From Haplodiscus bocki (Eukaryota): 64,000 nucleotides of DNA. A program made the translations under genes and the position numbers. This document shows positions 11,720-61,763 of this stretch, piece after piece. The stretch is taken from the NCBI GenBank assembly GCA_965655095.1, contig OZ296648.1, positions 155,930,001 through 155,994,000 on the forward strand, written 5' to 3'. Within the stretch, counting starts at the first letter, position 1, and each line of letters begins with the position of its first letter. The notes under the pieces were generated by a model, which worked only from the letters and a program-made list of their open reading frames with translations, had not been told where the DNA came from and ran no database searches.

Positions 11720-12560
11720 GATGTGATCGACACTGTACTACACCAGCTGTCAACCAAAAGTTTGCTCGAAAAAGTGAAGGTGAGACAAGTTCTTGTCACA
11801 GAGTCTGATACTCGAAAATTTGATATGTCAATCATGTCTTTTTAGGTTACACCATCTTGCAGCCCAAATGCTTAGGAAGTTTGTATAGTAAAAAAACGGA
11901 AACGAACAAGTTATTGCCAAAACGAGGCCGTTTTTGACCCTTCACACCAGGTGACTAGATGATGTCACAATTGTGACATCATCTAGTCACCTGGTGTGAA
12001 GGGTCAAAAACGGCCTATTTTAAAATGCAAGTATTTGACAAGATAAAAAATTAAGCATGAGCTGCTTTCAATACACAATCTTCCTTTCAGTCAGAATGTG
12101 TGAAAATGCAAATATTGTTGTACATACGCCGATTTCACTGTCGTACGATTCAGTTGTATACAAAACATATCATGAACTGAACTGCAGGCAAGTGTAACTA
12201 AGCATCGTGAGGTCACATAAACAAAAAGTGAGGAAAAACTGTCCGATTACGCTATATCCTGTCTGTAAAACAAAATTCAAGGTCGTGCCTGTAATATCTT
12301 TCGCCTTCAATAATAAAAAAAATGATATTTCAATTTTGTTTCTCAAGTTACTCCATTTTGCTGCCCAATGTCTAAGAAATTTGAACAGAAAAAAATGCGA
12401 AAACTAACTAGTACCTTCCAAAAGTAGGCAGTTTTTCAGCGTTTACTCTAGATGACTAGACTCTCTCATGACGTCAAAAGTTCAAGTTTTGGACAGGACC
12501 AAGAAAAAACGAAGCAAAAACCGGTTTCGATACACATTCTTCCTTTCTGTCAGAATGTGT
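11720..12560. repeat. Dispersed repeat family, two tandem diverged copies (~460-bp spacing); homologue at ~44750-44960
   Basis: 'tactacaccagctgtcaaccaaaagtttgctcgaaaaagtgaaggtgagacaagt' (11735) matches 'tactacaccatctgtcaacgaaaggtttgttcgaaaaagtcaaattgagacaagt' (44762). 'atacacaatcttcctttcagtcagaatgtgt' (12071) matches 'atacacattcttcctttctgtcagaatgtgt' (12530). Confidence 0.75.
11925..12016. repeat. Perfect 92-bp palindrome (46-bp arms, no spacer)
   Basis: aggccgtttttgacccttcacaccaggtgactagatgatgtcacaa|ttgtgacatcatctagtcacctggtgtgaagggtcaaaaacggcct is its own reverse complement, centred at 11970/11971. Confidence 0.98.
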
Positions 12561-25462: not shown

Positions 25463-26460
25463 AGTAGCTCAACTAAATGATGAAAAAAAATCCCGTGAAA
25501 ACTCTCATGAAGTTTTTACAGTAGCGTTTATTATTTCACTTATGATGTATACAAAGTTTTAAAAGGAACTCAATTTCCCCAACAAACACAATATTCATAA
25601 ACAAGATCGCATCTTTAGAAACTTGGAACAATACACAAAAATGGAAACGAAATTTAAAAAACGACTTAGATTTAATTGGAAGCGGGATGAGGTGAAAAGT
25701 AGCATAGATGACATTAGAAGCCGGATGAAGTATGATTGGGGCGATATGGGAAGCAAGATACTATGAGGATCATGGAAGTGGAATGTAAGGGTTGATATTG
25801 GAAGCTGAAAAAAATGACGATAATGGAAGCGGGATTTGATGGACGATCTTGGAAGCGGGATGATATTGCAGTGCGAAAGCGCGATAGCATAGATTTAACT
25901 AGAAGCAAGATATAATGGATATTGGAAGCTAAATACTAGAGATTTAATTGGAAGCGGATTATATTGGGGACGGGATATATTGGAAGTTGATTATGATGGA
26001 CCATGCTGCAAGCAGGACAACCAAGAATTGTTTGGAAGCAGGATTTATTGAAAGATATTGGAAGCAGGATAAAATGCTTGATAATGGAAGCCGGATATTA
26101 TAGGTTTATTTGGAAGCTGGATAAGATGTGGACGTAGGATTTAAAAAAATTGATATGAAAGTTGATTAAAAAAGGATGACATTAGAAAGTGCATGATAGT
26201 GGAATCTGGATGATATTCAAACCTGGATTTCTTGGATATCATTGGAACGAAAATTCTAATGAAGCATGATGGGTGATATCGGAAGCCAAATATGATTTGT
26301 AGAAGTTGGATGATAATGGAAGCTGTATACGTTGAAGGAAAGCGAGGATGATTTTTGGAAGTGATATGAAAAAGGAAGCTTGATGATGTGGCTGTAATTG
26401 AAAGCAGGACAAGATGAGGTTACTGGAAGCAGAATACGATGATTGATAATGGAAGTCATT
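25463..26460 (+). repeat. Left TIR of Polinton-1, with internal ~20-nt 'tggaagcgggat' minisatellite
   Basis: 25666 'ttagatttaattggaagcgggatgaggtgaaaagtagcatagatgac' matches the reverse complement of 44437-44484 'catagattcaattggaagcgggataaggtggaaggtaatatagatgac'. The match continues outward to 'actctcatgaagtttttacagtagcgtttatt'. Confidence 0.88.
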
Positions 26461-26678
26461 GAAAACTATTAGAGATGTAATTTGAAACAGAATAAAATGG
26501 TCACTTCCGATAAGTTATTTACACTGCAGCTATTATAAGAATTGGTGAGCTACTGTTTTATCGGCATTACGAAATTCTATAATCTTGAGAAACAAGAAAA
26601 AACCAGGCATTTACTAAGACTGGAGCGAATAAAAAAGACGACTTCTAATCACAATTTTCGATACAGTTGAAGAATAGA

Positions 26679-28150
26679 ATGACATCCCATGAAGAAATTG
26701 ATGAGTAACAACAACTTTGTATGTTAAAAAATTTAAGTTTAGCTGTAATAAATGAAATTAACATCAGGACAAATATCCAGTCTGTCCAATAAGCAGTATT
26801 GGAATTAGACACCCTCTACTGTGTAGTGATAGATACGTGTAGGAAGATAAATCTATTGAAGAATGGCTTAGGATTCAAGATTCGTTACAACACCAATAAC
26901 AAATTTTATTGAATATGTACAACCTTGTAACCTAAATCATAAACTATAACTAAATACACTATTGACAGAGAAGGTGATTCTCAAAGACATAATTTTGACA
27001 ATTCCCAAGACGATTCTCTAATTAATCATTACATTACTTAACTTGATGTTGGAGATGTTAGATTCAATTTTGATGAACAATTATTGAGGAAACTAATTAA
27101 AACACATCCATATGCTTTATATCATCCATCCCCTCTACAAAATGACATAGAAATCGATATGGATGCAGGTAAAAGATGTTCAAGCGTTACTCAACGTATC
27201 TGACGAACAAAAAATGAAAAAGAAATTGTTAAGAGAGCAATGGTATTACTTTAGAAGGAGCAGTTTTTGAATTGAAAAATCATAAAAGTTGTTAGGAAGA
27301 AATTGAAAAAAAAATGGTCTAGCGTCAGAAAGTCTACTGAACTACGAAATGATAGAGATTGATTGTTATGAGAGAAATGATTGTTATTGAGGCTGTTAAA
27401 AGAAATGGTAAAACTTTCATGAGGGGGCAAAAAATGAAGTACAAAAATGATAAATTGTTATGGAAGCACACAAACAATATAGCTTGGCTTCGAAAATGGG
27501 CATCTAAAGAAAAGATGAGAGACAAAAAAATAATTTCAATCGCAAAGAATTCATTCACCAGGGACGCTAACAAGGAAAGTGATCGATTGTAAGAAGTATA
27601 GGTTTTGCTATATCAAATGGAAGCTAATTATCCAATCTGAACAAAAAACGTTATTGTAATTAGACATAAAGTATTATGTAGCGACGGCTAAAAATATGAA
27701 AAACGCACCTATTCTTCGTTGTCGTCTCACGTAACACCACCAGTCAATCGTCAATTTAAAATTTTTTTAAAATTCAGTAAATTAAAAAAAATAAATTCAA
27801 GAGGGAAAAAGAAGCAAATAGAAAAAAAGTGAGTGCAAGGTAAAAAGGGAAAAGAAGTTAAAACAATAGTTGAGTAAGAACGATTAGTTTGGTAACATTG
27901 AGAACAGGAATATTCGAATAGATGATGGGAAACTTCTTCTTCAACTGGTTTAAAAAATTGTATTGCTATGAAAGTTGCTTCTGGAAAAATAAAAGAAAAA
28001 GAAACTGCGCTACATGCTGTAAAACAAACTAATGACGCCATAGGTTTTCTAAATGTTGAATTTAGGAAGATGTGGATGTCGTAACAGCAGTAATTAAACA
28101 AAACAGTGCTTTTGAAAAATACACCAAGATTTTAGAAAGTACCTCAACGA
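26679..28150 (+). pseudogene. U-box (E3 ligase) domain + DUF4116-type helical repeat protein, pseudogene, cargo of Polinton-1
   Basis: 26768-26905 translates DKYPVCPISSIGIRHPLLCSDRYV*EDKSIEEWLRIQD/TPITN, fitting the U-box pattern CPI..P...DG..YE...IEEWL....PIT. Downstream fragments LQNDIEIDMDAGKRC, ALLNVSDEQ/NEKEIVKRA, STELRNDR/EMIVIEAVKRNG, WASKEKMRDKKII, KEKETALHAVKQTNDAIGF and DVVTAVIKQNSAFEKY fit the S-E-L-K-N-D-R-E-I-V-L-E-A-V-K-Q-N-G repeat. Confidence 0.7.
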
Positions 28151-30559
28151 TAATCCACCATATGCAACTTGTATTAGGAGTAAATGTGGCTATATTTATT
28201 TACATTCAAGTGGATTTTTTGGTTCATTCTACCCAAATCTCGATCTGCGAAAGCGTCTACCTCCTTTGACACAGTTTTTCATTCTGTAGTTGAAACTGTT
28301 TCAGGATTAATTCCGTTAATGTTTAACTTTTCACCATAACTTAAAAAAGCTATTCAAATCCACATGCGACATAGTTCTTTATAAGGAAGATTCCCTTATA
28401 CCTATATCAGGACAAATACCTTATTTTTGTTGGCGGTTATCTGTTTTTGCTTCGTATAAATTATAAATTACATCATTTTTTCATCTAAAAACGAATTACA
28501 TCAAGAGTAACGTCGCCAATTGTATTGAAATAATTCATTTGTATTTGATCTACAGGAGCAAAAATGAATGAAGAATTTAAGTCAAAAGTTAGGGCTGACA
28601 AAAGAATCCGACAAGAAACAATTAACAGATTAGAAGAAAAAGAGAAAACAGGAGGCGCAGTCGCTCTGCGATACCTCCCGTCAATGAGGCGCAAAAAATT
28701 ATGATGGAACAAACACCAAATCACTTCAAAAAACCCGTTATTGACAAAAAAGTATCGAAGGAGACCTTGTCGGAAGAATGCAAGCCGGTAGCTTTAGCAA
28801 GAGAATTTTAGGATTTACGAAATATGTCAAATGAATCCTTTGGAATTTTCGAAACATCAAGATTCCAATTGAAGTGAAACTTAAAAATATCACTGTCAAC
28901 AAAATCACTGCTTTAAAGCACAAGAAATGATCCGAAGTTAACGAGGGCCCTGATCAAACAATTCTCAAGCAGTCCAGATTTAAAAAAAGACTGTATCTGA
29001 ACATTTTGGAAAAGAGCCGACTGGCTATTCCTGGCGGAAAGGTATCTTCAGAAAATTTTAACCTGAAGCAACACTCCTTAGATCCTTTCGTTGATCACAA
29101 TCCGAGTCTTTTTTGTTTGAAATTGGAGAATCCCATGAAGAAAAACTCAACTCTGCTCTCGAACATTCAAACTTTGTTCTGACTTATTACCATCAAAGTT
29201 ATAAAAATTAACGTACGGTAAAATCTGATCAAAGTTGATATATTCACCTGATTTGTCTACATAAAATCATCGCGTGACACTTGGAAGGAGTGAGTTCAGT
29301 GTGTCCACATTCCAAGAAAAAGATAAGATAAAATAGAATAGAAAACAAAAATGGGTTACCGAGTTTGAAGTTTATAAATACTGACATCCGGAATTAATAC
29401 TGAGAGCTGATAAAATAAAATGTGGCGTCACTACGGCGTTGAACAAGCACTTCTTATCAACTTGAAAAACCAAAATGACATCTACAAAAACAACATCAAG
29501 ATAAGTAATAATGTACTAATTTTCCATGAATTACTCAGCTTAAAATTTTTGAACTGCACAAACTAATCTATAAATTACTTTACACTGAAAATAAAGGAGG
29601 GGGGATTGTTCTACAGAAGTGAGCTCTTCATTTGCAAAGTCAGGAGCTTTTAGTTCCGCATTCTTTGAATAAACAATTCAAAAAAACTTGAGAAAACTTT
29701 ATCATGTCAATGAACTCAATAAAAAATTACTCAAATAGGTTATTTTCTAAAGAAGGAAATTGAATATGAAAAATCTGTCACATTCTGTAGTCCGAATCAT
29801 TTGGAAAATGAAGCAATACTACGCTGCTAGCATGGCTTTCGCACCTTAAATCGCAAAATTTTCAGATGAAAGTCAAAAGTTCGAGTTCAGAAAACCTTCT
29901 ACACTCTGTGAGTAATAGCGCCAAGAAACGTTGAAAAAGCCAAAAAACGAAAATCACCAGGATACGATTGTGCACTAGAGCAACGAGCTTGTATCTCGCG
30001 TAGTATGAGCGATCTGTTGTTCACGTTATTCAAACGATATCACTTCGGTTTTATTTCTTAATATTAAACTTTGGAAAAACGACACCAAATTAAAGGTGTC
30101 AAAATTGGTTTCTTGACGTTCGATTGTTTTTTTAAGGAATTGAAAGTTTCAGAGACTATTCAAGACGTTTCAAAGCTCTGACAGAACTGTAGGGAATTAC
30201 AGTTGGTTGAATGCCACGCCCAAATCAGTTTTGAACTGTCAACCAAAAATACACGAATTAGTTGCTTATGTTGACTTTTGTGTGGTGGCCCCAACAGTCA
30301 ATTCAGACATTGATACAAGAATTCAAACCGGTAACTCTGGGGAAGGACGAGTTGGAATACCGAGAAAACCCAATATGAATAGCAATTCTCCCATTTTTGG
30401 TCAATCAACAATATAATCTCGACGTAGAGAATATTTTTCATGATATTTAGTAATGAATAGTCCATTTCAAGTAAAAAGCTGTCGAATACCACCATGATAG
30501 AAAAAAATTCGAGTAGAGCTGAAGAAATATGAGTTTGAATATCTTGGCATCTCAAGACT

Positions 30560-33445: not shown

Positions 33446-34900
33446 ATGGAAAATAACAATGCAAAAAGAAACCAAGGTGCTAATGGAGGATTGTTCGTTG
33501 TACAGGATAAAGTTGAAGACAATGTTGTTTTTAACATGGGTGATGTAACAAATGATTCATCTATGGAGACCGAACACCTTAGTGCGAAAATTGAAAATGA
33601 AATTGATGATCAAATTGCTCTGAAATCTTATGTTGAAAAAAAAACAACAACCGAGCCCAGAAAAACACGAAAGAATTCTAGCAGCAAAACTACCGAAACT
33701 AGAAGGTAGCAAAAGTTTAGCTTCCCAGATAACCACATAAGTTTCTTGAAATCGTCATTAGATGCTGACCTATTTTACAGAAAAATCTCATCTGAAAAGG
33801 AACTAGCTATCGACAAATTCATTTGCACAGAAGAAATGTTGCAAACAAGATTAATTGAAGGGATGGAGAAGCAACAATATTCTCAAGAAAAGTTAGCACA
33901 TGGAAAGATAGAAAATTTCGAAGAAGATATCAATAAAAATCGCCAAATGGTTAAGAAAAGAGATAACTGATATATCTGAACAGAAAGAACCAGTTGATGT
34001 AAATGCTAAAACTTTTTTGGAAATTGTACAAGATGGTCAAATCTTGAAAAAAGTAAGCATAGAGGGAAAAAGGCTGAACTAGCATGTCTCGAAAAAAAAA
34101 TGAAAAGATGACGGAAAAAAGGGAAACAGATTCAATAATTCAGATTATGAAATCCAAAATACAGCTTTTCTATAATAAAGTACTATTTTATAAATTTTCA
34201 AACAAATATCAAACTTTTACACCAATTTTGATTTAGATGATTCTTCAGTTTTGAAAAACATGGTAAGGCAATTAATCGTCGAGAAATAGATTGGAGAGGA
34301 GGATGACATTTATCTCATTTGGTTTGAAAATCTGTCGAACTAATTTATGCAATGATTATCTGATACGCCAGCAGCAGAAAAAAGACATGGTTGATATAAA
34401 ACAGAGTATGAACATATCAGATGCAGAAATATCTGGAACACGAATATAAAAAGTAAACCCAACTTCAGTAGAATCATCTGAGATTGTAGAAGAAATTATA
34501 GATAAAATGTTGAAAGAGGTCAATAGTTCAAATATTTCATTAAACAATATTAATGTAATAATTTCAAGAGATTAGGAAGTTGAAAAATACAAAAGGAAAG
34601 AAAACAAAAAATTCTAACGTGGAAAAAGATTTGCACACAACACATTGTGTAACGATTGAACGCTCTAAAAGCAAATCTATATCTCTTAGGGTAACCCAAC
34701 TCGGATTAACTGTAGTACAAATAAATACTAGTGTTCCCGTTTATAGACAAATATACGCTGGACTTACAACTAAAACTACCGAGAAAAATATATTCTTCCC
34801 ATAATTGACACCTCTTCAGAAAAATGTACTTTAGAGGTTTGGAAGATAATAAGGTAGATCAAGCAGAATTTAACAACTTCACCAATCTACATGATGAGGA
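33446..34900 (+). pseudogene. Decayed Glu/Lys-rich (coiled-coil-like) Polinton ORF upstream of the capsid gene
   Basis: A chain of short purine-rich + strand ORFs (33446-33709, 33746-33970 and following) broken by stops; no family assignment. Confidence 0.4.
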
Positions 34901-34982: not shown

Positions 34983-36165
34983 AATGATAATCAAACAAAA
35001 TAGTACCAAAAAATTATTCAGAGATATTTAGAAAACAGAGTTTGTTAAACGCTCACCAAGCAGTTTCGAAACAGTCAATGCCAAAAAGAGTAATATAGAA
35101 TAAAGTCTTCCGCATGAACAAAACTATATACCCACAAAACAGTTAAAACTTTGAGGACAATGAGGTAACAAATCACACTGCTGCTAACACACAAAATGCT
35201 AAAATGACAATATCTGTTTAATGACTCATGGACCTCGTTCCCTATTCAGTGAAGCTAAACTTATATCAAGTACAAAAAAACGTCTTGAGAAAGCTGATAA
35301 TCTTCATACTGTTAGTTCAAGGCATCCGCTCTCAACATCCTTACCCGGAATAACTGATTGACTATATATATATTCGACCCTGAGGTTGGGAAAAGACGGA
35401 GAAATTCCAAATATTAACGCAGTAGGAGCAAAACGCGGTTTGTATAATAGAATGTGATTGATAGATATCTTTGGTTTTGCTGATCAAAATGAAAAAAAAA
35501 ACAGATGGATGAGGATATGATCTTATTCCGAAACGCACCAACAAAAAAGCAGCAAATTTAGTAGACGCAGCTAAAGCTGCGGATAAAAAAACTAATAGAC
35601 TTATATTATGCTATGTCGCAGATTTCAACCCTACTCTTGAGAATCAACAAACAGTTGCTACTGAAATACTAGCAAAAAGAGCGACCGAATTATATTATGT
35701 GGAACGGAGAGTTTTCCGAAAAGCAATCCTAAATAATGGTAGATGGACTCTTGAACTGGGAAAAAAGAGCGGAAAAGTATACCATCTTGAACTTTTGTGA
35801 GACTTATTAATAATAAAATTCTCACACATTTTTCGACTTCTGATCTACTCGATTATCTGAGAAAACGGTTTCATGAAGTATACTATGAAAAAGAAAATTT
35901 TCTGACTAAATACACCGCGGCGCTAGTAATGGAATCCTTAACAGAAACAAAAAGGTTTAGGGAAAAATAATTTATATGAATTCGATACAAGAGAGCGAAA
36001 AGATCACGAAGGTGCGCAACTAATTGATATAGCATTCAGATTCTCTGTAGCTGGTATTGCTGTTACAGATTATACAGCATTCGCAATGAGAACGGCTCAT
36101 GGTTTATCTAGTATTAGTTCTGATGGAAGGCGGACGTTTGATTCAAAAGTTATTGTTGAAGATTA
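34983..36165 (+). pseudogene. Polinton-1 major capsid (double jelly-roll) protein pseudogene
   Basis: Manual translation gives KTEFVKRSPSSFETVNA, HGPRSLFSEAKLISSTKKRLE, ATELYYVERRVFRK...WTLELG and C-terminal YEFDTRE...AQLIDIAFRF...SISSDGRRTFD. These resemble blocks I recall from invertebrate Polinton major capsid proteins. Confidence 0.7.
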
Positions 36166-36830: not shown

Positions 36831-37299
36831 ATTAGGGATGTACAGTATTCATCCCAACGCTATTTTAAAAAACCTGTGATAAATAGGGACAGCAGTATTA
36901 TTCTTATATTATTCACACAAACTGCTAATATGGTACAAAGTTTGTATAATTATATAGCCGGACTTGATGAGTTGAGAGGAATTGGATGATTTGTGTAGAG
37001 AAGCTATGAAAGCAAAACATATCTATTTTATGACTAATGTAATAGATGACCAAGAAAAATATTGCACATACAATGAATGTAATAATGATCGTGAAGTTAC
37101 AAAGCTTCAAATAGTCGTTCTATAAACAGGGTAAAGATTTCGCTGACTCAGTTTCACTTTCGAAAATTGATTGAATAGTTCGTTCGAGTTTGTAAATTTC
37201 GTAACCTTCGCGGTTCTTGATTGTGAACTTTTAAACAAACGACAAATGATATTAGTAGAGTTGTTTTTCCGTAGAGTTTCCTCTTTTCACTCTCAGGAA

Positions 37300-37744: not shown

Positions 37745-38790
37745 AAAATCTGTTGTAAAGGCCAAGTTTGTCCAGCAAAATCAAATCGACTAGGATAATC
37801 ATCATTAAATGAAGAAATTTCTCACTATGCGGCTCTTTGTTTATTTTCTCATAGAGTAGAGCAAAAGGTTCATTGAAAATTTTGGAACCTGGTGAGGACC
37901 CAAGACTGAAAGAAGATAGGATAACCTCACAAATTCCATTAACAATTGACTTATCAACAGAAAATCATTTAAACTGAACTTTATCCATATTTGGTGTGTT
38001 CAAAAGTTTTTCTGTTGTATTTGTTCCCGCCGAGAACTTTGTTTTTGTAAAGCCTAAAACATCATCAAACTGTGAAATGAAAAATATGAGGTGTTGTTAA
38101 ATATCATAGTCTTTACTTTAGCTTTAACCTCTATATCCTCCAACATTATTTATGTCCCTAACCTCCTATAAACCAGGTTGCAAAACGTGGGGTAGATCTA
38201 CAGCATCAATAAAAATTGGGCCCATATTACAATCAAATTCTAAATAATTCTAAAAAAGTAATTGCAAAATTGATAACAAATCTATATCTTCATCCCTCTC
38301 ATGTCGACCATATTTCAATTCCTTTAAACCTTCGATAGAATTAATCGTGGGTGTTTCATATTCAAAATCCGATGAATGAAAAACATCATGTCAACGATGT
38401 GGGTCCATTCGGTGAGGGATGTGAATTCCCTTCGCATATGTACTAGCTAGATCTATTGTTATTCAAAATTATTTTCAAGTGTAATCTGGTCCAATCAATT
38501 TAAACTGACTAACATCTCCAGCTTTTTGTTCATAGTCACCTGGGGTTAGAAGAGTGAATTTATCATTCCTATCAGTTATGTTACACACACTATTTTACAC
38601 TTGTGAATCAGTAACATCCATTTATCCTGCCATGCAGGACCATAAGGGACTGAAGGAAGATCAAATGTGAAATTCTGCTCAATTAAAATTAATCTAAATC
38701 TGAGTTCTTAGTGTCTATTATGGTTTAGTATGTGTATTCTCTTCAACTTTAATGAATATTTCTGTTCTAAAGGATGAACTCCACTTTCAT
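37745..38790 (-). pseudogene. Polinton-1 minor capsid (penton) protein pseudogene
   Basis: C-terminal block MDKVQFK*FSVDKSIVNGICEVILSSFSLGSSPGSKIFNEP..LYEKINK...RFDFAGQT matches the penton C-terminal pattern (CD...SxVNG....L.SF....PG.K...EP...DFxG). Confidence 0.7.
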
Positions 38791-39227: not shown

Positions 39228-42200
39228 TTACTGCCAAGGTATACTTTCTATTTTACCAAAATAACGTCCTTTATCGTTGAAAGAAATGAGGGCAAATTTC
39301 TCAACTTTTTGTGAGTTCATTTCATGTCCACAATTTCTAGTCACAAAAAATCTGCATATTCTTTATATTCACCTCCAGTTAAACAGTCAAAATATTCTTC
39401 AGTTAATTTTTCCTCTAAATACATTGGAAACTCCTTTCGAATTAGCTTTAACTTCTTCCTCATCACTACAATTAAATGCGCAACATGACGCTCTCAATGC
39501 AATGAATTTTCCTTCTGTCGTAATTTTCCCAAATCCTCACCTATAGCTTTACTTTAAAAACAAAGAATAAAAGAATCACAGTCAAAATAGTGCAACTGTA
39601 GATCATCTGGTCCGAAAAAAGATTGCAGTCCAATATAACGTTACACATGAGGAATGTAAATTTAGCTCTGAAACAATACACCCTAAATATAATGGTTTAT
39701 GGAACATTTCATTTTTCAACGAAAAAGCTGGTAAATCATCATATGATTTTGATCCAGCGAACGGATACTTACTTCGTGAACTAGCATGACTCCGGATTTC
39801 GGATACAGATCTAACATTCAAACGATTGCGCCAGTTTCTAAAGTTTTTCCATAGGCGGAACTAACTATTGCAACAGTTTCCATTGTTTTTTCATAGAAAG
39901 AATTAACCTTTATGAAAGCCTCTCTCAATTTCACCGTTATTAGCAGCTTTGTTATTTCTTTTACTATCAATAAAACCTTTCAACCGCGGTTTTTCTTTAT
40001 AGCTTAAAACATCGTGTACGTTACCCGCATACCTTGTGGGATTAAAAAATATTGGAATTCTATAATGTACTAATAAAATGTTTTCTTTCTTGGTCCAATC
40101 ACAGCTTAAATTTTCCGGTACTTTAGACTACTTAACGTCACGCGCATGTTTTATGAATTTTCATTTCTTGGCAGAATGAGACATTACAAGATTCATCTGT
40201 AGCTTCTCAATCTGTCGTATCTCAATCAACTTGATCAAAGTAGCCAATATCAGCAAAAACTGGTGCCGCGAGAGTTGTATCGACATCAACTGAATTCTCG
40301 AATTCAACACAAACTCATAAGGTAAAAAATGTGAAAAAGCCCAACCATTAAAAACAAAGAATACATACAACACTTTGTTTAGGTTACACCACAAAATCCC
40401 CCGCGCATCTGTCGCCCATTGAAAAGAAGTAAATCTTCATCTTGTATATTCCATAGTTCTTTTCGAACACACTTCAAACCAGCGGTCGAAGTAAACCCTG
40501 GGTTAAATAAATTTATCAGGGTTGATAGTAATCTGTAGCTGCTTTTTTGAGAACTGTCTCAAACAAATCAGCCAGCAACGTTGAATTAGATTTCATATAA
40601 AACATTTTTGGACCTTTCCCAGTCTTAGCAGTAAATTCTTTCATTATATCAAACGTGCGGATCAAACAGACACCTCAGAGATGCTCACTCTTGAATTTGA
40701 GGAGTGTTTTTCTATGACATTCAAGTGAATTTAAAAAAATAGGACAAGCCAGCTTTTTAAAACTTTGTAAATTATCACTGATTCAGGTCTAGGGTATTTT
40801 CCATTTATAATTTTGAAGTCCTCTAATTTCAGTTACCACTAAAGCGTCAAAACTTGATTGAAGAATTCTATAGGAAGCTATGAATCTTAATCATTCATCA
40901 TCTATAAAAGTAAAACTTTCTGCTGTCGTTGGAATTAGTTTCCGTTTAGATTTATCATTTCTAAAAGTTGCTAAAACTTTGAAGAACAAGTGAGAAACCT
41001 AATTACTGAAATTGAGAAGGGTTATAGGGAGACAACTGGATCATGACTTTTAAACGTTCAAACCACAGGACTGAAGAGCAGTTCCTCTATAGTTTCCTTC
41101 TTAACAACAAACATTTCTAACGTTCATTTCACTATTTAAAAAATTGGTATCACAATATTAAATGTATTTTGTATCTACGAAAGCAGTTTCATTATCATCT
41201 GGAAATTCAAGCTCTCCATTTTTTTCCTAAAAAAAGAAAGTAATTTTGTTTTCTCATTTAATCATAGCATTAACCAAAGGTATCATAGAATTTTTTGCTG
41301 AGTGTGAATAATATCAAGTCGGAAGTTAATCATTTTCTATAACGGATACAAGACGTTAGCCAAAAAAACGGGGGTTTGGTGATATATATCAGTCGTTCTC
41401 TTTCGCTGTGACTTAGCGTTGGATACATTGCAAGTTTCAGCATCAACTCCAACAGGTATAGATTTTTAAATCGAATTTACTCTATTTAAAATATTTCTCT
41501 CTGGGAAAATGATAGTACATGCTTCACCGACTAAAAAGAGATCCCGGTGTTGGTTCGAAACTTCTTTAATGAAAAGACACGATGAACAATTTCTAAAACT
41601 ACGTCTTACATCAAGTTGGCAAAGAAACGAATGCAACTCTTTTCAATCGAAAAACAAAGACTTTCCAAGACCAGCAGACATAATTTCCTTTTGGGGTTCG
41701 CCTTGCGATTCACTCGATTACCATTTCAAAAAAAACTGAGAAATACTCAAGCTTCAAAAAAAACATTTTCATGATTTAAATCGAAGACGTTCACTTAGAT
41801 TTTGATTTTCTAAAAATTCACTATTCTCTTATTTCAAACCACTATGGAAGTCTATTCGATTTGTTTTGATAGTATTAAATGACTTTTGAAGCTCACAAAT
41901 TCTCTCAGCATCTCTTCTAACGAGATAATTAGATGTTTTAAAAGACCATATTGTACAAAATTTACCATCGTTTTATATGTTCAAAACTGATTTATTTTAT
42001 AAACGAAAGCTTTTAAAGGATGCATCTGTAATCGAAACTGTTTCATACAGACTATATGTAACAGATTCAAGTTCGTCAAATCTCCAACCAGAACCTTTCA
42101 ATTCTCGGTTTTCGACAGCAGTTTTTGGTTCAGATTCAAAATCTGATGAATCTAACTCCTTTTCTGCTTCTTATCTGATGCGTTTTTGAATAGATGAATA

Positions 42201-42500: not shown

Positions 42501-42999
42501 TTCACGTGTATCACAGAGTGTGTTGGTTGAGGTATTTTAATTTTTTCATGACTTTTCGATAAATTCAAGCGTGTAAGTACTACTTCGAACAATACAAATT
42601 TCACTCACTCTTTTACTATCATCGTTGGACTCACCAAAACTCAGATAAAGGGTTTTTGTCAAACTCATATACGCCTCAATTTCCTTTAGGAATACGAACA
42701 TGAGAGCGCAATAAACATTTTGATGCCTGAGATGATCCAGATTGTGAATAGTTCTCGAAATCAGAAGTTTGATGAAATTTATTTAAAAGACCAGACCTCG
42801 ATTTTTGTCCAAATCAGATATTTGTTTGATCGATCATTTCTTGCAACCAGAACACTGTCTTCTATCTTTTAATACTTCATTAATTGCTTCATATGCTTCC
42901 ATAACTCCTTCAAACGGTATAAATTTAGAAAATTGAAAATTTTCCTTTCCAAAATGGAAAGTCTTTCCATCACACTTTCAAATTTAGGGACAACAATTT

Positions 43000-43760
43000 C
43001 ACAACTGCTTCAACATAGTGCTCAGGCCACTAATGAACAGTCTACGATTCTGCTAACAACGAATAGTATCAACAAAAATTTGAAGAATTTATGAATTTAA
43101 AACTCCAATTTGTTATCTCCTCTAGAAAATATCTTCCTCGTAACAGCCGTCCAAACTAAGACTCCCATACTATAATTTTGATTTGTTTGTTGCGTTCACC
43201 GTAATGGTTCCCGAAAACGATCATCTCAATTTTTTTCAGAAAAGCATCAACTGGAGTCATCTCAATGGAACTATGGACAGTGTTGATGTTTTTCGGTGAT
43301 AGAGAAAGGTTGATCGATCCAAATACTATTACCTTTCACAGAAACTGGCTTTTCCAAAAAACTATAAATCTATTCACAATTTCAGCGAGTCCTGCTCCAT
43401 TAAACGCAGATCTATATCGCCCTATTCCCACTTCTCTGAATCAACCTAAAAACAAAACTTACAAACTCTTTACCATCTTCTTTTCTATTAGTTTAGTGTT
43501 TTTGTAGATGAAATCAGAACGTCGCGAAAGCATCAGTTATTGTTTAGGCAAAAAAATTTCTCGATGGAATCACCCATCAATGGAAGTTATCAACCACAAA
43601 AAATGTAAACAACATCCATTACTTTTTGTTCCACAATAAATCAAAACCAAAAAATCTGAGCGCCAATTGTTAACAAAAAGTTTGAATTCGGTTTTGTATC
43701 AAAATTCTCCTGAGGAGATTCTGAAGAACTTTTTGATAAAATCATCACCAGTTGTTTATC
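43000..43760 (-). pseudogene. Polinton-1 retroviral-like (DDE) integrase pseudogene
   Basis: Fragments NNWRSDFL, VDNF..W.IP, GAGLAEIVNRFI, VHSSIEMTPVDA and LVWTAVTRKIFSRGD/NWS occur in integrase order. Confidence 0.8.
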
Positions 43761-43849: not shown

Positions 43850-44676
43850 TCCACTATCAACATAGAAATTGAACCACCAATTATACCTATATTATCCTTC
43901 ATCAATTTCCAATATCAACCACAATATCCTCCTTCCAAAGCCATTTCAAACATCTTTCATTATCTTCCAATATCATTATTCGCACCTGGCTTTCAAAAAT
44001 CATTCACAGAATTCTGCTTCCAATGAAACCTATACTATTGTGCTTCCAATATGCCCACATTATCCTGCTTGTAATATCGTGCATCAAATTCAACTCCCAC
44101 TGAATCCCGCTTCCATCATCCACATCTCCTCTTTCCAATGTAACATATGTCATCGAGCTTCCAAGATGATCCATTTTATCCTGCTTCAAGTATTATTCAT
44201 TATATCTCGCTTCCAATTAAATCGGTTTCATCCCGCTTTCAGTATCGCCCATCAAATTCAGCTTCCAATAGGTCCCGCCTCGAATAATATTTGCTTCTAT
44301 TATTGTCCATCAAATCCGGCTTCAGTACCATCAAAATTTATTAGCCTCCAATATCAACCATTAAATCCCACTTCGAAGACCCCCATGTTATCCCGCCTTA
44401 CATATCACCCCAACCAAATCTCAACCCGCTACCACTGTCATCTATATTACCTTCCACCTTATCCCGCTTCCAATTGAATCTATGTCCTTTTCAAATTTCA
44501 CATCCAAATTTTGCGTATTATTCCGAATTTGTGAAGATGCGAGTAATGTTTTGGAATAGTGTTTTTTGGGGAAAACGACTTCGATTTGAATGTTTGTATT
44601 TATTTTGAGTGAAAAAATAAACGCCATTGTAATAGCTTCAAGAGAGTAATAAAAGGATTTCTTAAACTAAACTACG
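43850..44676 (-). repeat. Right TIR of Polinton-1
   Basis: Reverse complement of the left TIR, including the 'atcccgcttccaat' minisatellite. Confidence 0.88.
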
Positions 44677-45219: not shown

Positions 45220-46586
45220 AAAACAGCCACTGTTGGGCAAAAGCGGTCACATAGCAAGGGTGTTCCAAAAATTGACAATTAGGACATTGGGTAAAGACAT
45301 AAGAATCCGGAAACGAAAAAATCTTCCAAAAAGCCGTGTTTTTCTCAGAAAAATTGGTTCAAAGTTTCGAGCAACCCGAGGTTCACAAGAGCACTGAGGT
45401 ACTGAAAGAAATTAGGAGGTATATATTCAACGCTAGTTCAACCGAGATGAGGGTCGTAAAAAACTATCGCCAAAGGGAAGAAGAACTGAAAAAAATTGCA
45501 CTACATCTAAAGAGTACCTTGGCCCTATATCTAAAGAGTACCATGGCCCGACCACTTTTTTAAAACCAACCGTATCATCAAAAAACTTCGAGTGCTTCTG
45601 CAGGCTTTCCAGTGAGCCTCACAACGCCCAGATGACTTTCATTATTTGTACAACAGGCTGATAAGTTTTCAGAAAAGTCTTAACAAAACATATCTGTTGA
45701 GACTTTTCGGCTATTAATCCTTCAGAAAAGTCATTAAAAAATTGACTACGGAACAGATTACTTAGTCTTCTCTGCAATCCAAATGATATGCTTGACTTTG
45801 AGGCACAAATGAAAGCGGTAAATTTTGGATAACACAGAAGTTTATTTGAAAACTCAATTTTTTCAGAAAATTTCGGACCAAAACAGTGTGGGGAAAAAAA
45901 CTGGAAAGAAATCGGCTATAAACAAAATGCAACTAACGCTTCATTTTCCATCGCCTAACCAGCAAGGTGATACCCTACATGGAAAATTACGCCAGAGAAG
46001 TGCGATAATGTAACACTTGTTCTCTGAAAAAACCTGGCTTTTCAATTGTTCTCGCCAAAAGCTGGCCGCGGAAAAACTTTCGTCCACCCAATATTTTGGC
46101 TTCGGTCAATTAAGACCTAGCGAAGGCAGCTAAGCAACAACCAAACGGATCCTACAAAAGCAAATTTAAAAAAGAGCGTCAAATTTGACTTAAGGCCCAT
46201 GGGGAATGTCAAATCTGTTGCGGAAAGATTCAAAACTTTTCACTTTTTTGGCAATAAACATCACAGCAGGCCGTTCAACTAAATAGTGTTCCTTGGCTCA
46301 GCTCAAAATAGTAGCAATTCAGAGCTTACTACAGAGCGAGGGCTCAAAAATATAGCATTTGCCCTCCAAAAATACCCGAATTTGTTATTTTTCCCGCTAA
46401 TAACTCGCCGAAAAACTTTCGGCTGTCGATAGAATCGAAAACGATAGATCGTCAACCCGTCGGAGTGTTAATACAAAAATTGGATAAATGCGAACAATAG
46501 GTGCCGAGAAAAACAGATTTAAACAGACCAAACGGAGAGGGATGTCACGGACGGGAAAAACGGAAATCATGTCGCTCCACTCGCCT
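45220..46586 (-). mobile_element. Non-autonomous Helentron/DINE-1-like element, older copy
   Basis: Colinear with 46860-47053 plus 47591-48715. Its right end is 'cgctccactcgcct' with an internal 'acggacggg' (CCGT microsatellite on the minus strand). The repeat is certain; the classification is inference. Confidence 0.45.
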
Positions 46587-46859
46587 AAACACAGGCCGTC
46601 CAAAGTGCCGTCCACTTCAGAGAAGTGCAACATTTTTCAACAAAAAACAGGCGTTATGGTGCTCAGCGCAAGGCTCGCGAAAATACTCAATCTCTGGACA
46701 TCACTGACTACATGCTTATGCATTGACAGAGAGCAAGAAGCAAAATCTGTAGACATTAGGCAAAGAACAACAAAGAAAACAGCGGAGGTTCAAGGTAACT
46801 ATCCTGACTTCAAACAAAAAATGAAAAAACAACAAAATTTTGTATTCTCAAAAGTCAGA

Positions 46860-48715
46860 GAAGTCCGGCCGTTGCTTAGCAAATGCCGTCTCACAGCGAG
46901 AAGGTTGAAAAAGTTGACAACCAGGTGTTAAATAAAGAAAGACGAATCTGGAAACAAAAATTTTTCCCAGAAAGCCGTGTTTTCTCGATAAATCTTGTAA
47001 GAAAACTCGATTAAAAGACTTTTCGCGCAACTCCGAGGTCACATGAACACTCAGGCTAATGCAATCAACTTTAACCATAGCTCGAGTTTGAAATATTAAA
47101 GAAGGCATGTCCACAAGTTATACCGGCGAAGTCTGATTGGTTGTTCAAAGGGCCCAAAACCAATCAACTTTTCTATTTCTTGCCAGCCGCAGCAAAGTTG
47201 ACATCAAACTACAGTGAAGTCCTCCGGAAAGACTCTTTACAGCAAACAACGGTCACAATTTTACTTCAGTTTTCAGCCAGAAAACTACACCAAAAAATCT
47301 TGACTTCTTTATCATGCTAACACCTCAAACACTTGTTATTGATTTCGAAGGCCTCCGTTTTTTAAAACAACCTTTCACAACTAAAGAGTTACCTGTTTGG
47401 GGTTTTGTCTACGATACAATTCTTCTGAAGCCACCTTGTCCCGTCCATTTAGTCTCTGTCACGGCACAGTAAAGTTATATGTGGATTACGAAAACTATGC
47501 ACGTTTTGAACTGAGATTTTGGAATTTATGATTATTCTAGTTTCTTTCTAATCTTAAAATTCCGTTTCCAAAAAATCATCATTCGCGCCACAAAGAGTAC
47601 CTTGGCCTTACCACCTATCGACGACCGAGCGTACCTTGGAAGTCTCTCGACTGCTTCTCCAGGCAATCCAGTCTGCGTAACGAAGCTCAGTTCCTTTCTA
47701 TTGTTTGTGCAACCGAAGAAAAGTTTAGGAAGAGTCGACAAAGGTTGAGGAAACGTGATTTTTGACAATGTTTGTCAAAAGAATCCACAACAGAAGTTAG
47801 CTTGCAGTCAAAACTTGCATCATAACACATTGCTGTACAAATTGCCTAAACTGTCAATCAAGACAGGTGACATTGATTGCTTTAATGCACGCTGAACGCG
47901 ACAAACTTTAGATAAATGCAGAAATGTATTTGGAAAATATTTTTTCAGAAAATTTCGGCCAGAAAATGGTGGAAAAATCAGAAAACATTCAGCTAAAAAC
48001 TGAATGCAACCAACGTTTCCGTTTCCATCACTTAGCCACAATTGGGATGCCATACATGTGTTATTAAGCCAGAGAAGTGCGACAAAGTAACACTGACTTC
48101 TGAAAAAAAAAATGGGTTTTCATTATTTTCCCCGAAAACTCGCCGGCGAAAAATTTTCGTCCAGCAAAAACTTTGGCTTCAAAATTACGACCTTGCGAAA
48201 GCAGTTAAAAAGTAAGAAAACGGATCCTACGAATGCGTTTGTAGAAAATGCGCGTCAAAGTTGACTCAGTGGGCAATGCAGAATGTCAAATCTGCTTCGA
48301 AAATATTCAAAACTTTTCACTTTTTTCGACCGAAACTAGCAGGAAAAAATGGCAACAAACATCACAGCAAGCCGTTCAACTAAATAGTGTTCCTCGGCTC
48401 AGCTCAAACTATTAGCGATTCCGAGCTTACTACAGAGAGAGGGCTCAAAAATATAGCTTTTGTCCTCTAAAAAAAATTCCAAACAAATTTTTTTCGCTAA
48501 CATCTCGCCGAAAAAAAACTGTTGCCAGCCGAAAGAATCAAACATGACGGATCGTGAACCCGTTGTAGTGTTTATAAAAAATTGGATAAATCCGAGCAAG
48601 TGATGCCGAAAAAAAATACATCTGATGGGATGAAACGCAGAGGGAAGTCACGGACGGGAAAAAATGGAATCATTTCGACGTGTCCTTGTGCGAATAGGCT
48701 TCGCTCCGCTCGCCT
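46860..48715 (-). mobile_element. Second Helentron/DINE-1-like copy, interrupted at 47054-47590 by Polinton-2 DNA
   Basis: The minus strand begins after a T-run with AGGCGAGCGGAGCGAAGCCT (self-complementary ends), then CCGTCCGT. A hairpin cggc-cg-ttgct-t-agcaa-at-gccg lies at the other end (46866-46888). Confidence 0.45.
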
Positions 48716-51700
48716 GAAAAAAATCTAGCCTCATAGGTTGTCTTAAGTCCATTGAGAAATCGAGAATATTTCTGCTATCATAAAAATCCAATCATCAACA
48801 ATCCTCATTGAAATATTATCACTGACGTTGAAATTACCGTAAACGACGCTGTTTCTGACCGTTTACAGCCTGTGTCAAAAAGTTATCTCGGCGTCATGCC
48901 AAAGTTATACATGCGAACCAAGGTTGAAACGCCACTTTTTTGGCCTAAAACGTTTGCTCAAATTTATCATATAAAAAAAAAACAATTTTATTGTTCTTGA
49001 CATTCTGAAACTTTTGATGTCAAATTTTAGTGAAAAGTTTACGCAAAATTTAGCTCCAAGATATGCATTTTTACGTTGAAAGAGTATTGGCGGGACAAAC
49101 TTTTCACGCGAGCTATATACTAAAGGACTAAAATCTTCGATGAAGTCAATTTGGTAGAAGCTGGTTTCTTTTGGCCAGAATAGGTGAAGTGACAAATCGA
49201 TGTCCCTTTATTGACACTATCAAAGCATAGCACATACAGTTGCGCTGAAAAACGATTGTTATCAGCAAGAAATTAGCTGCACATCAATTGGAAGAAAAAA
49301 TAACTGCAAAAGACGAGGAGACAAGATTCGCCCGCGAAAAGATTGACGCAATTTTGGGATTGACCCGCGAAAAAAATTGTGATTCCTCATTGGTCAAAAA
49401 GATGATAGTTATAGAAACAATAGTGCTAAAATCTACGAAGACGCTTGATACTGTTTTTAGTGCTCTGTAGGTTGTTTTCTTTGAATATATAAAACGTGAC
49501 TACCTTCACGATAATGCACAACAAATACCTCACATGGTACAACCAGTTTCTTTCGTTCTGAAGGTTGAGGGTTCGAATCCAAAAGCCGGCAATAGTTTCT
49601 TCTCCAATATGGACTAGCAGCAGGAAAAGTCTGAACAAACAGTGACATCAGATTCTTAGTAACGTATAGTTGCAAGTATTCATTATTTAAATCCACAATG
49701 GATTGGAAAAAGCTGCTGTTCAAGATAGTGACAATAACTCTGGCTCTTTTAACAAATCTGGTTCCAATTTATTTGACACATCAAGGAAAAAATGGACTCT
49801 GATACGTTTGACTACGACCAACACGACTATATAAAATCATCTGAATGTTCGCCGAAATTTGACGGTTTCTGTCTGAACAACGGTGTTCCTTTTGTCCCTG
49901 CAGACACAAACGGAGTTGCTTGCATTTGCCAAATTTCATACTAAGGTCCAAGGTGTAATATGTGGTAAAAACAGCACTATAAACCCATTTCAGAGCCACA
50001 CTTTCATCAAAGAAAACGTGCCTGAACTGTCGCAGAACACTCATTATATTGTGTCCGATAACAATGAGCCAATTTTGGATTTCCTTGTTAGTTTGCAAAA
50101 AAAAACAACTCGGGGAGGTACAGATGTCACGTTCCGAGATTACTTTGAGGAATTTCAAAGGAATCCAAACAGAAATGAGGAAAACAGAATTCGCTTCGGA
50201 ACGTGGAAGAAACTTTGTTGGCTAATGCAATTAACTTTCACCATAGCTCGAGTTTGAAATATTAAAGAAGGCATGTCCACAAGTTATACCGGCGAAGTCT
50301 GATTGGTTTTTCAAAGGGCCCAAAACCAATCAACTTTTATATTTCTTGCCAGCCGCAGCAAAGTTGACATCAAACTACAGTGAAGTCCTCCGAAAAGACT
50401 CTTTACAGCAAACAACGGACAAAATTTTACTTTAGTTTTCAGCCAGAAAACTACACCAAAAATTCTTGACTTCTTTATCATGCTAACACCTCAAACACTT
50501 GTTATTGATTTCGAAGGCCTCCGTTTTTTAAAACAACCTTTCACAACTAAAGAGTTACCTGTTTGGGGTTTTGTCTACGATACAATTCTTCTGAAGCCAC
50601 CTTGTCCCGTCCATTTAGTCTCTGTCACGGCACAGTAAAGTTATATGTGGATTACGAAAACTATGCACGTTTTGAACTGAGATTTTGGAATTTATGATTA
50701 TTCTAGTTTCTTTCTAATCTTAAAATTCCGTTTCCAAAAAATCATCATTTGCGCCACAAAGAGTACCTTGGCCTTACCACCTATCGACGACCGAGCGTAC
50801 CTTGGAAGTCTCTCGACTGCTTCTCCAGGCAATCCAGTCTGCGTAACGAAGCTCAGTTCCTTTCTATTGTTTGTGCAACCGAAGAAAAGTTTAGGAAGAG
50901 TCGACAAAGGTTGAGGAAACGTGATTTTTGACAATGTTTGTCAAAAGAATCCACAACAGAAGTTAGCTTGCAGTCAAAACTTGCATCATAACACATTGCT
51001 GTACAAATTGCCTAAACTGTCAATCAAGACAGGTGACATTGATTGCTTTAATGCACGCTGAACGCGACAAACTTTAGATAAATGCAGAAATGTATTTGGA
51101 AAATATTTTTTTTTCAGAAAATTTCGGCCAGAAAATGGTGGAAAAATCAGAAAACATTCAGCTAAAAACTGAATGCAACCAACGTTTCCGTTTCCATCAC
51201 TTAGCCACAATTGGGATGCCATACATGTGTTATTAAGCCAGAGAAGTGCGACAAAGTAACACTGACTTCTGAAAAAAAAAATGGGTTTTCATTATTTTCC
51301 CCGAAAACTCGCCGGCGAAAAATTTCCTTCCAGCAAAAACTTTGGCTTCAAAATTACGACCTTGCGAAAGCAGTTAAAAAGTAAGAAAACGGATCCTACG
51401 AATGCGTTTGTGGAAAATGCGCGTCAAGGTTGACTCAGTGGGCAATGCAGAATGTCAAATCTGCTTCGAAAATATTCAAAACTTTTCACTTTTTTCGACC
51501 GAAACTAGCAGGAAAAAATGGCAAAAAACATCACAGCAAGCCGTTCAACTAAATAGTGTTCCTCGGCTCAGCTCAAATTATTAGCGATTCCGAGCTTACT
51601 ACAGAGAGAGGGCTCAAAAATATAGCTTTTGTCCTCTAAAAAAATTCCAAACATAATTTTTTTCGCTAATATCTCGCCGAAAAAAACTGTTGCCAGCCGA

Positions 51701-54700
51701 AAGAATCAAACATGACGGATCGTGAACCCGTTGTAGTGTTTATAAAAAAAATGGATAAATCCGAGCAAGTGATGCCGAAAAAAAATACATCTGATGGGAT
51801 GAAACGCAGAGGGAAGTCACGGACGGGAAAAAATGGAATCATTTCGACGTGTCCTTGTGCGAATAGGCTTCGCTCCGCTCGCCTGAAAAAAATCTAGCCT
51901 CATAGGTTGTCTTAAGTCCATTGAGAAATCGAGAATATTTCTGCTATCATAAAAATCCAATCATCAACAATCCTCATTGAAATATTATCACTGACGTTGA
52001 AATTACCGTAAACGACGCTGTTTCTGACCGTTTACAGCCTGTGTCAAAAAGTTATCTCGGCGTCATGCCAAAGTTATACATGCGAACCAGGGTTGAAATG
52101 CCACTTTTTTGGCCTAAAACGTATGCTCAAATTTATCATATAAAAAAAAAACAATTTTATTGTTCTTGACATTCTGAAACTTTTGATGTCAAATTTTAGT
52201 GAAAAGTTTACGCAAAATTTAGCTCCAAGATATGCATTTTTACGTTGAAAGAGTATTGGCGGGACAAACTTTTCACGCGAGCTATATACTAAAGGACTAA
52301 AATCTTCGATGACGTCAATTTGGTAGAAGCTGGTTTCTTTTGGCCAGAATAGGTGAAGTGACAAATCGATGTCCCTTTATTGACACTATCAAAGCATAGC
52401 ACATACAGTTGCGCTGAAAAACGATTGTTATAAGCAAGAAATTAGCTGCACATCAATTGGAAGAAAAAATAACTGCAAAAGACGCGGAGACAAGATTCGC
52501 CCGCGAAAAGATTGACGCAATTTTGGGATTGACCCGCGAAAAAACTTGTGATTCCTCATTGGTCAAAAAGATGAGAGTTATAGAAACAATAGTGCTAAAA
52601 TCTACGAAGACGCTTGATACTGTTTTTAGTGCTCTGTAGGTTGTTTTCTTTGAATATATAAAACGTGACTACCTTCACGATAATGCACAACAAATACCTC
52701 ACATGGTACAACCAGTTTCTTTCGTTCTGAAGGTTGAGGGTTCGAATCCAAAAGCCGGCAATAGTTTCTTCTCCAATATGGACTAGCAGCAGGAAAAGTC
52801 TGAACAAACAGTGACATCAGATTCTTAGTAACGTATAGTTGCAAGTATTCATTATTTAAATCCACAATGGATTGGAAAAAGCTGCTGTTCAAGATAGTGA
52901 CAATAACTCTGGCTCTTTTAACAAATCTGGTTCCAATTTATTTGACACATCAAGGAAAAAATGGACTCTGATACGTTTGACTACGACCAACACGACTATA
53001 TAAAATCATCTGAATGTTCGCCGAAATTTGACGGTTTCTGTCTGAACAACGGTGTTCCTTTTGTCCCTGCAGACACAAACGGAGTTGCTTGCATTTGCCA
53101 AATTTCATACTAAGGTCCAAGGTGTAATATGTGGTAAAAACAGCACTATAAACCCATTTCAGAGCCACACTTTCATCAAAGAAAACGTGCCTGAACTGTC
53201 GCAAAACACTCATTATATTGTGTCCGATAACAATGAGCCAATTTTGGATTTCCTTGTTAGTTTGCAAAAAAAACAACTCGGGGAGGTACAGATGTCACGT
53301 TCCGAGATTACTTTGAGGAATTTCAAAGGAATCCAAACAGAAATGAGGAAAACAGAATTCGCTTCGGAACGTGGAAGAAACTTTGTTGGCTAATGCAATC
53401 AACTTTAACCATAGCTCGAGTTTGAAATATTAAAGAAGGCATGTCCACAAGTTATACCGGCGAAGTCTGATTGGTTGTTCAAAGGGCCCAAAACCAATCA
53501 ACTTTTCTATTTCTTGCCAGCCGCAGCAAAGTTGACATCAAACTACAGTGAAGTCCTCCGAAAAGACTCTTTACAGCAAACAACGGTCACAATTTTACTT
53601 CAGTTTTCAGCCTGAAAACTACACCAAAAATTCTTGACTTCTTTGTCATGCTAACACCTCAAACACTTGTTATTGATTTCGAAGGCCTCCGTTTTTTAAA
53701 ACAACCTTTCACAACTAAAGAGTTACCTGTTTGGGGTTTTGTCTACGATACAATTCTTCTGAAGCCACCTTGTCCCGTCCATTTAGCCTCTGTCACGGCA
53801 CAGTAAAGTTATATGTGGATTACGAAAACTATGCACGTTTTGAACTGGGATTTTGGAATTTATGATTATTCTAGTTTCTTTCTAATCTTAAAATTCCGTT
53901 TCCAAAAAATCATCATTTGCGCCACAAAGAGTACCTTGGCCTTACCACCTATCGACGACCGAGCGTACCTTGGAAGTCTCTCGACTGCTTCTCCAGGCAA
54001 TCCAGTCTGCGTAACGAAGCTCAGTTCCTTTCTATTGTTTGTGCAACCGAAGAAAAGTTTAGGAAGAGTCGACAAAGGTTGAGGAAACGTGATTTTTGAC
54101 AATGTTTGTCAAAAGAATCCACAACAGAAGTTAGCTTGCAGTCAAAACTTGCATCATAACACATTGCTGTACAAATTGCCTAAACTGTCAATCAAGACAG
54201 GTGACATTGATTGCTTTAATGCACGCTGAACGCGACAAACTTTAGATAAATGCAGAAATGTATTTGGAAAATATTTTTTCAGAAAATTTCGGCCAGAAAA
54301 TGGTGGAAAAATCAGAAAACATTCAGCTAAAAACTGAATGCAACCAACGTTTCCGTTTCCATCACTTAGCCACAATTGGGATGCCATACATGTGTTATTA
54401 AGCCAGAGAAGTGCGACAAAGTAACACTGACTTCTGAAAAAAAAAATGGGTTTTCATTATTTTCCCCGAAAACTCGCCGGCGAAAAATTTTCGTCCAGCA
54501 AAAACTTTGGCTTCAAAATTACGACCTTGCGAAAGCAGTTAAAAAGTAAGAAAACGGATCCTACGAATGCGTTTGTAGAAAATGCGCGTCAAAGTTGACT
54601 CAGTGGGCAATGCAGAATGTCAAATCTGCTTCGAAAATATTCAAAACTTTTCACTTTTTTCGACCGAAACTAGCAGGAAAAAATGGCAACAAACATCACA

Positions 54701-60545: not shown

Positions 60546-60585
60546 AAACCATGAGTTTGACATATAATAAGGGTCAACCGAATCA

Positions 60586-61399: not shown

Positions 61400-61750
61400 A
61401 AAGGCAGTCTAACTATTCCCGGCAAGCTGTTATGCCTCACTTTTCGGGCCACACAAGACAGAGGAGGCGATTTAGGATCCTCAGCCGCTGCAGTTGAATG
61501 GGTTGCCTTACCTTTCGCAAAAGAAGTATTTCTACCAGCTGTCAAATTGAAAGGCAGGGAATTGTTTGTTCAATGTTTTCCAGAATTGATGGATGTCGTC
61601 ACGAAAAAAATCTCCCAAAGAAGCAGCGAAATCAGCCGTGAAAACGGCAATGAAAAAGCGAAACAGAAAAAGTTCACCAATCAAAAAGAGTAAACCTGTG
61701 AAAAGAAACAGTCGACGAAAAAAGAGGCTGCAGAAGTCGGTCAAATTTTT
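61400..61750 (+). pseudogene. Polinton-2 basic core-like protein pseudogene
   Basis: YYSRQA.MPHFSGHTRQR-G-G motif followed by a Lys/Arg-rich tail (KKSPKEAAKSAVKTAMKKR...), located between penton and major capsid genes. Confidence 0.55.
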
Positions 61751-61763
61751 AACGAGTGAAAAA

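Follow-up and report, generated by a model that had tools for sequence, protein, structure and literature searches.

The window analysed here, a 64,000-nucleotide stretch from a 1.5-Gb eukaryotic assembly, carries two broken tandem genes at 26679-28150 on the plus strand, just inside the left end of a 19-kb element. The element is bounded by inverted arms at 25485-25856 and 44293-44663 that are 74% identical; weaker inverted arms lie further in, and identity across all arms spans 64-75%. AGT-type end motifs, which the accessible text of PMC8097293 gives as the Polinton/Maverick motif, are found at 25463 (AGTAGC) and at 44671. Both terminal inverted repeats (TIRs) are decayed, the left one (25463-26130) containing 26-bp subrepeats and the right one occupying 43992-44676.

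The Polinton gene set is present between these ends as remnants: a major capsid protein (matched part 34987-35773, plus strand; tblastn with an intact Polinton ORF, E 4e-19), a packaging ATPase (matched part 36837-36968, plus strand; E 0.001), a minor capsid protein (37836-38594, minus strand; E 1e-16), a protein-primed DNA polymerase B (pPolB; 39518-42092, minus strand; E 2e-12), and a retroviral-like integrase (42976-43609, minus strand; E 1e-8). These core remnants were detected solely with intact Polinton ORFs from the same genome as queries, and Pfam gave no match on the raw frames of the core region. No tblastn match to the cysteine protease was obtained in the window, where that gene may be too decayed, and the flanks of this old copy contain no clear 6-bp target-site duplication. 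The window element is an old, thoroughly decayed Polinton, and the inverted arms and core remnants bear out the setting proposed for the interval in the initial annotation.

Between the interval and the capsid gene lie a segment also present in sister elements (28220-28470; nhmmer to L223, E 1e-13, and to L143), a later insertion absent from the sister L223 (28640-33430), and two further segments common to sister elements (33450-34900, plus strand). The insertion is a common genomic repeat with a period of about 178 bp and a tRNA-like end; similar sequence was found in 3 of 20 control stretches, and ARAGORN detected no tRNA in it. Elsewhere in the window we observed a second decayed Polinton of another family (58080-62620) with ATPase, integrase, minor capsid, and major capsid remnants, all on the plus strand; a 51-bp near-perfect palindrome in which a spacer is absent (11920-12021); and a repeat of about 3.17-kb period at about 46500-56500 with a tRNA B-box-like motif at 49569, 52738, and 55902.

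The interval consists of two tandem genes

Gene 1 (26679-27560) comprises an N-terminal extension, a U-box-like domain (26765-26934), a conserved linker with the first repeat (26955-27200; BLASTP to the unbroken relative P0081, 32% over 74 aa, E 1e-5), and about six DUF4116 repeats, whose remnants are scattered across three frames at 27120-27560. Its start may lie further upstream, since the DNA is conserved with other copies from about 26510. The residues from which the domain was originally recognised are present at 26783-26878, interrupted by a stop at 26840-26842 and followed by a frameshift near 26878, and the 'TPIT' part quoted with them lies in another frame. Gene 2 (27617-28150) has its own ATG at 27617, a U-box-like domain with two stops (27620-27775), and about three DUF4116 remnants (27900-28120). 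Domain 1 is 53-56% identical to the unbroken P0081, P0083, and P0085 over 32-35 aa, and the alignment of gene 2 to P0083 starts at residue 1. The window copies of both genes are dead.

A profile built exclusively from other copies scored 54 bits at the U-box-like stretch beginning at 26765 and 24 bits at the second stretch, while none of 10 shuffled 64-kb windows gave a match of 8 bits or more with the same profile. A DNA profile of 48 other copies delimited two units, 26608-27420 (E 5.5e-81) and 27594-28112 (E 2.6e-27). Scoring with a repeat matrix built on just nine units revealed eight repeat clusters spaced by about 75 nt, five in gene 1 (one of which spans two neighbouring repeats) and three in gene 2, whereas 200 shuffles gave 0.7 on average and never more than 4.

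The initial annotation had read the interval as one ORF with six repeats; the U-box-like domain and the DUF4116 repeats stand, but they belong to two tandem paralogous genes, as the second unit has its own ATG and relatives have a stop before it. In L061 and L143 the stop lies directly 5' of the second ATG (TAAATG context), and P0081, P0083, and P0085 start at the position of the second-gene ATG and end after 214-217 aa; on these grounds we rejected a single long ORF with two U-boxes. Tandem pairs occur at several other loci as well (L053, L061, L094, and L104). The TAAATG context was found for all 26 Met-started ORFs (at least 130 aa, right after a stop) of two young Polintons (E4 and E5; L114-L119). 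It resembles the poxvirus late-promoter motif, and literature listings yielded no clear description of it in Polintons.

The N-terminal domain resembles a diverged U-box

With Pfam cut-offs of 21.4 bits for the U-box (PF04564) and 24.9 bits for DUF4116 (PF13475), the window alone gave no U-box match, and the best U-box score among decayed copies of the family was 18.7 bits. Three unbroken relatives passed the U-box cut-off (P0079, 27.0 bits; P0098, 21.9 bits; P0081, 21.6 bits); P0083, P0084, P0085, and P0088 stayed below it, P0083 and P0085 having no match at E 0.01. When a 40-row family profile was compared with the PDB, all seven matches at E up to 10 were U-box proteins (best E 3.5e-4), the best being 7c96, 7xed, 1t1h, and 4wz3, and HHalign of the family profile to six host U-boxes gave 97.2% (E 3e-11, 45 columns). 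A search of 1.84 billion proteins retrieved the family itself first and then ordinary U-box proteins; 20 of the 150 listed matches were scanned with Pfam, and all 13 from outside the family passed the U-box cut-off, three of them passing the ankyrin cut-off also. By Pfam score the proposed U-box assignment is carried by P0079, P0098, and P0081 and not by the window copy; at the profile level it is carried by the family.

The best-kept columns are the first Cys (43/58), a Trp (46/64), a Pro (43/61), and an Arg (37/59), which in U-boxes serve to contact and activate the E2; the unbroken relatives retain the Trp, Pro, and Arg positions. Among the RING ligand positions, the first and sixth are mostly Cys and the other six are not, leaving a RING-like core without the full zinc set. 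The domain of the window family (family B) has an additional conserved Cys and His. A two-zinc RING finger was considered for family B and ruled out, as the eight zinc ligands are not present. The AlphaFold model of the domain was uninformative (pLDDT 58, pTM 0.30), and in the ESM Atlas the matches were Nucleocytoviricota RING clusters (0.77-0.78), which we regard as no more than a lead. A domain tree sets the family apart as a separate group with weak support (68/93); its 52 columns are too few to name a donor. Judged by homology, we file the domain as a diverged U-box.

The U-box-like domain and the DUF4116 repeats share one chain

The DUF4116 pieces of the window score 18.1 and 13.5 bits, short of the cut-off, which is passed elsewhere in the family by the genomic copy L182 (82.5 bits) and by P0081 (74.3 bits) and P0083 (92.7 bits), so that this assignment too is carried by the relatives and not by the window pieces. 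Within a single chain, both Pfam cut-offs are exceeded by P0081 (214 aa) and by P0098, and P0083 and P0085 have the layout of P0081. In this genome, L181, L182, L186, L187, and L194 read from U-box through linker to repeats in one frame. No stop after the U-box is shared, with at most 8 of 45 copies having one at any codon. Of 50 U-box segments, 24 had no repeat match downstream, and just 7 of the other 26 had domain and repeats in the same frame, a pattern expected from decay. The fusion claimed from the window is thus confirmed by the unbroken P0081 and by single-frame read-throughs in natural copies; the two parts did not prove to be separate ORFs.

Structure prediction gives the repeats with good confidence as an array of helices (pLDDT 74-96, residues 151-287), and the accessible text of PMC8078820 describes 25-residue DUF4116 helical repeats modelled as an alpha-solenoid. 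Foldseek found no match in the PDB at E 0.001, and the best VIA score (Z 5.6, to TOG/HEAT arrays) was not significant; the best BFVD matches were giant-virus repeat proteins (E 2.7e-4 and 8.8e-4).

P0081, P0083, and P0085 come from ENA contigs and are absent from this genome, where the best match is 36% over their length. All three match both window genes, and P0081 matches the window linker in addition. A word-based homologue search with the domain profile found no family member outside this species, and with the longer profile it found only generic DUF4116 proteins outside it. There was no match in a phage collection by DNA or protein, and an IMG/VR scan gave matches only to GFD-type low-complexity repeats. 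None of 12 other DUF4116 proteins (P0067-P0078) has a U-box-like N-terminal domain. P0072 carries a ubiquitin domain (PF00240) in front of its DUF4116 repeats instead, and the N-termini of P0067, P0069, and P0071 look ubiquitin-like in our reading.

The gene is cargo of a Polinton subfamily

We counted no fewer than 68 distinct, decayed U-box-like domains in the genome. With P0081 as the query, 143 matches were found among 150 scored of 456 candidates; none of the 143 is a stop-free copy spanning domain and repeats, and no introns were seen. The sister element at C11:77.81 Mb is flanked by TIRs of its own (66%); its core genes follow the order of the window element, and a pair of U-boxes sits immediately inside its left TIR. 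In this sister and in those at C10:92.22 Mb and C11:68.99 Mb, the gene lies upstream of the capsid gene. It is at these three loci that the next segment of the window has its longest matches, and all three carry the gene. Among 20 loci picked by capsid-region DNA, the gene lay upstream in the same orientation in 2, compared with 0 of 20 controls; the other 18 had no gene within 10 kb. Of 13 family loci surveyed with their flanks, one showed the full element order and three had no core match, and we tentatively ascribe the sparseness of the full order to age and nesting. Four of the 20 control stretches of 10 kb also contained Polinton core matches, and proximity to such genes is therefore weak evidence by itself.

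Because of the C11:77.81 Mb sister, the capsid-picked loci against their controls, and the three long-match loci, we conclude that the gene is cargo of the window's Polinton subfamily and not of all related Polintons. The absence from other elements of the family that the initial annotation had weighed did not occur. The youngest elements sampled carry neither the window-family gene nor that of the related family A described below, and the gene is therefore dispensable. For family B the N/S count is saturated (private variants 3.0, shared 0.52), so that only the codon-position pattern was used; it was 0.30/0.25/0.39, which lends weak support.

Inverted arms at C2:27.43 Mb were rejected as TIRs, as they overlap a second paralogue on the opposite strand. 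At C8:55.460-55.478 Mb about eight or more U-box-DUF4116 copies stand in a tandem array, and some of them contain few stops. The Polinton load of the genome is very heavy, with 10,958 pPolB candidates, many in frames of more than 1,000 aa.

A homologous, more RING-like family occurs on younger Polintons

DUF4116 is abundant in this genome (140 matches among 150 scored of 1,363 candidates), and many of the matches belong to family A, in which a RING-like N-terminus with one possible zinc site is followed by GFD-type repeats and DUF4116. Family A is homologous to the window family (HHalign 95.7%) and falls in the same weakly supported tree group. In three regions it adjoins the protease and minor capsid genes of younger Polintons, lying about 3 kb before them, and 4 of 9 loci read have unbroken frames of 244-284 codons. 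The N/S ratio is 0.38 for shared versus 0.79 for private variants, which shows that the shared variants are under purifying selection and the private ones are near-neutral. All 28 members have a DUF4116 match. The N-terminus has at most four ligands of one zinc site, its RING Pfam matches are all below the cut-off, and its model is mostly at pLDDT <50. Family A matches are mostly from this species, 7 of 65 being letter-for-letter identical to sampled loci. In this homologous, more RING-like family the design of the window genes persists on younger Polintons.

At C3:135.08-135.11 Mb (L141, L142, L165, and L166) there is a 5-kb Polinton-end tandem array of at least five units, each with a RING-like/DUF4116 gene, a protease, and a minor capsid gene; a 244-aa frame is still open in several of the units. 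Genes with DUF4116 alone, lacking any U-box or RING match, lie among Polinton core genes at L015, L019, and L021 (C9:68.2, C6:95.4, and C9:68.67 Mb); here the repeat is used as cargo in a third way.

Discussion

The interval is probably best explained as tandem broken Polinton accessory genes that combine a U-box-like domain with DUF4116 repeats and that, when active, likely encoded single-chain E3 ligases. U-boxes bind E2~ubiquitin. In the proposed mechanism, a ubiquitin-loaded host E2 would bind to the U-box and a substrate would be held by the predicted helical DUF4116 solenoid and then become ubiquitinated. The substrate would most plausibly be a host factor that limits expression or replication of the element. 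Host defence is our most plausible guess for the target, and degradation of silencing factors by the putative ligase, as suggested initially, is speculation. The position at the element end, the tandem duplication, and the turnover would suit a host-interaction gene.

The same origin and architecture would also fit a catalytically weak decoy or adaptor that blocks or diverts its binding partner, either E2~ubiquitin or an E3 complex of the host. The divergence of the domain (Pfam 14-27 bits) speaks for this, as does the match to Pfam positions 6-51 of 73 only, with none to the usual C-terminal U-box helix; family A moreover lacks the conserved Trp, and its HHalign value to host U-boxes is just 2.6%. 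However, conservation in family B is among the highest at the Trp, Pro, and Arg, which the unbroken relatives retain, so we hold this explanation to be unlikely, though less so for family A. A variant of the ligase explanation differs in its target: the putative enzyme would be aimed at the element's own proteins, as in turnover of polymerase or capsid, or at a rival virus or element, as in superinfection exclusion. Against it, the tandem duplication and end turnover would by analogy resemble those of host-range genes, a comparison drawn from poxviruses. In its favour, the genome is crowded with Polintons of several families, and E3s of Polinton-like viruses (PLVs) are discussed in tripartite virus systems in the accessible text of PMC6459981; we judge a target of this kind to be decidedly less likely than a host factor and improbable in itself.

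It is very improbable that the gene derives from a host family or from some small mobile unit of its own and stands in the Polinton by chance. Most of the copies surveyed with flanks have no recognisable complete element and tandem arrays of the gene exist, such as that on C8, but three independent sisters have it in the same place and orientation, the capsid-picked loci differ from their controls, the 143 matches include neither introns nor a whole stop-free copy, and relatives of gene 2 open with the TAAATG context of young Polinton ORFs. A chance landing is largely refuted by this synteny.

Little has been established about the accessory genes of Polintons. With a recurrent E3-like cargo that was once under selection and has unbroken natural members, the way in which Polintons of multicellular hosts cope with silencing and innate defence becomes testable, and identifying what the repeat domain binds would reveal the host barrier. 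Returning to the ligase explanation, we tentatively propose, as a broader scenario that has somewhat less than an even chance of being correct, that the Polintons of this host lineage waged a long arms race with ubiquitin ligases of their own, in which DUF4116 was joined to a U-box in the older genes or to a one-zinc RING-like domain in the younger ones, and that these genes were tandem-duplicated, moved between families, and finally dropped. If this were true, DUF4116 would gain its first function, as the substrate receptor of a viral E3 and the counterpart of the giant-virus ankyrin repeats, and integrase-bearing Polintons would gain a testable counter-defence enzyme.

Comparison with known systems

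The architecture had been put forward as undescribed in animal Polintons. In the open literature searched we came across no account of a protein joining U-box and DUF4116, or of integrated Polintons with such cargo; the accessible text of papers mentioning DUF4116 yielded no link to ubiquitin, and a 2026 preprint on polisuvirus mosaicism does not mention ubiquitin. The novelty is still narrower than was implied, since, as far as the accessible text of these sources goes, 61 Polinton-like viruses and virophages are reported to carry E3 genes (PMC7805220) and several giant-virus orders to have U-boxes (Nucleocytoviricota; PMC11915834).

The E3s of PLVs and virophages, among them that of CpV-PLV Curly (PMC6459981), are like the window genes accessory E3-type genes in small Polinton-type dsDNA elements, and a counter-defence role has been proposed for them, which would be analogous to the one suggested here. 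Those elements are free or protist-associated, whereas the window element is an integrase-bearing Polinton with tandem U-box and DUF4116 genes, and the accessible accounts give no domain architecture to compare. Animal Mavericks and adintoviruses resemble the window element in having variable cargo that flanks the core genes (PMC8097293 and PMC8502044); the accessible text names IAP, Bcl2, Oncoid, PLA2, and gasdermin as cargo, and we found neither U-box nor DUF4116 in it.

Nucleocytoviricota U-box proteins, in the accessible text of PMC11915834, and the U-box-ankyrin proteins P0094, P0126, and P0146 have a like class of N-terminal U-box followed by helical repeats; the repeats of P0094, P0126, and P0146 are ankyrin and those of the window family are DUF4116. 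The DUF4116 proteins of giant viruses, phages, and protists have the 25-residue helical repeats of the window family but not its N-terminal domain (0 of 12, P0067-P0078). Plant PUBs combine a U-box and a solenoid in one chain. Plant PUB-ARM proteins and Legionella LubX are cellular or bacterial, and although their likeness to the window family is limited to a 40-residue core, within that core they have the U-box register in common with it.
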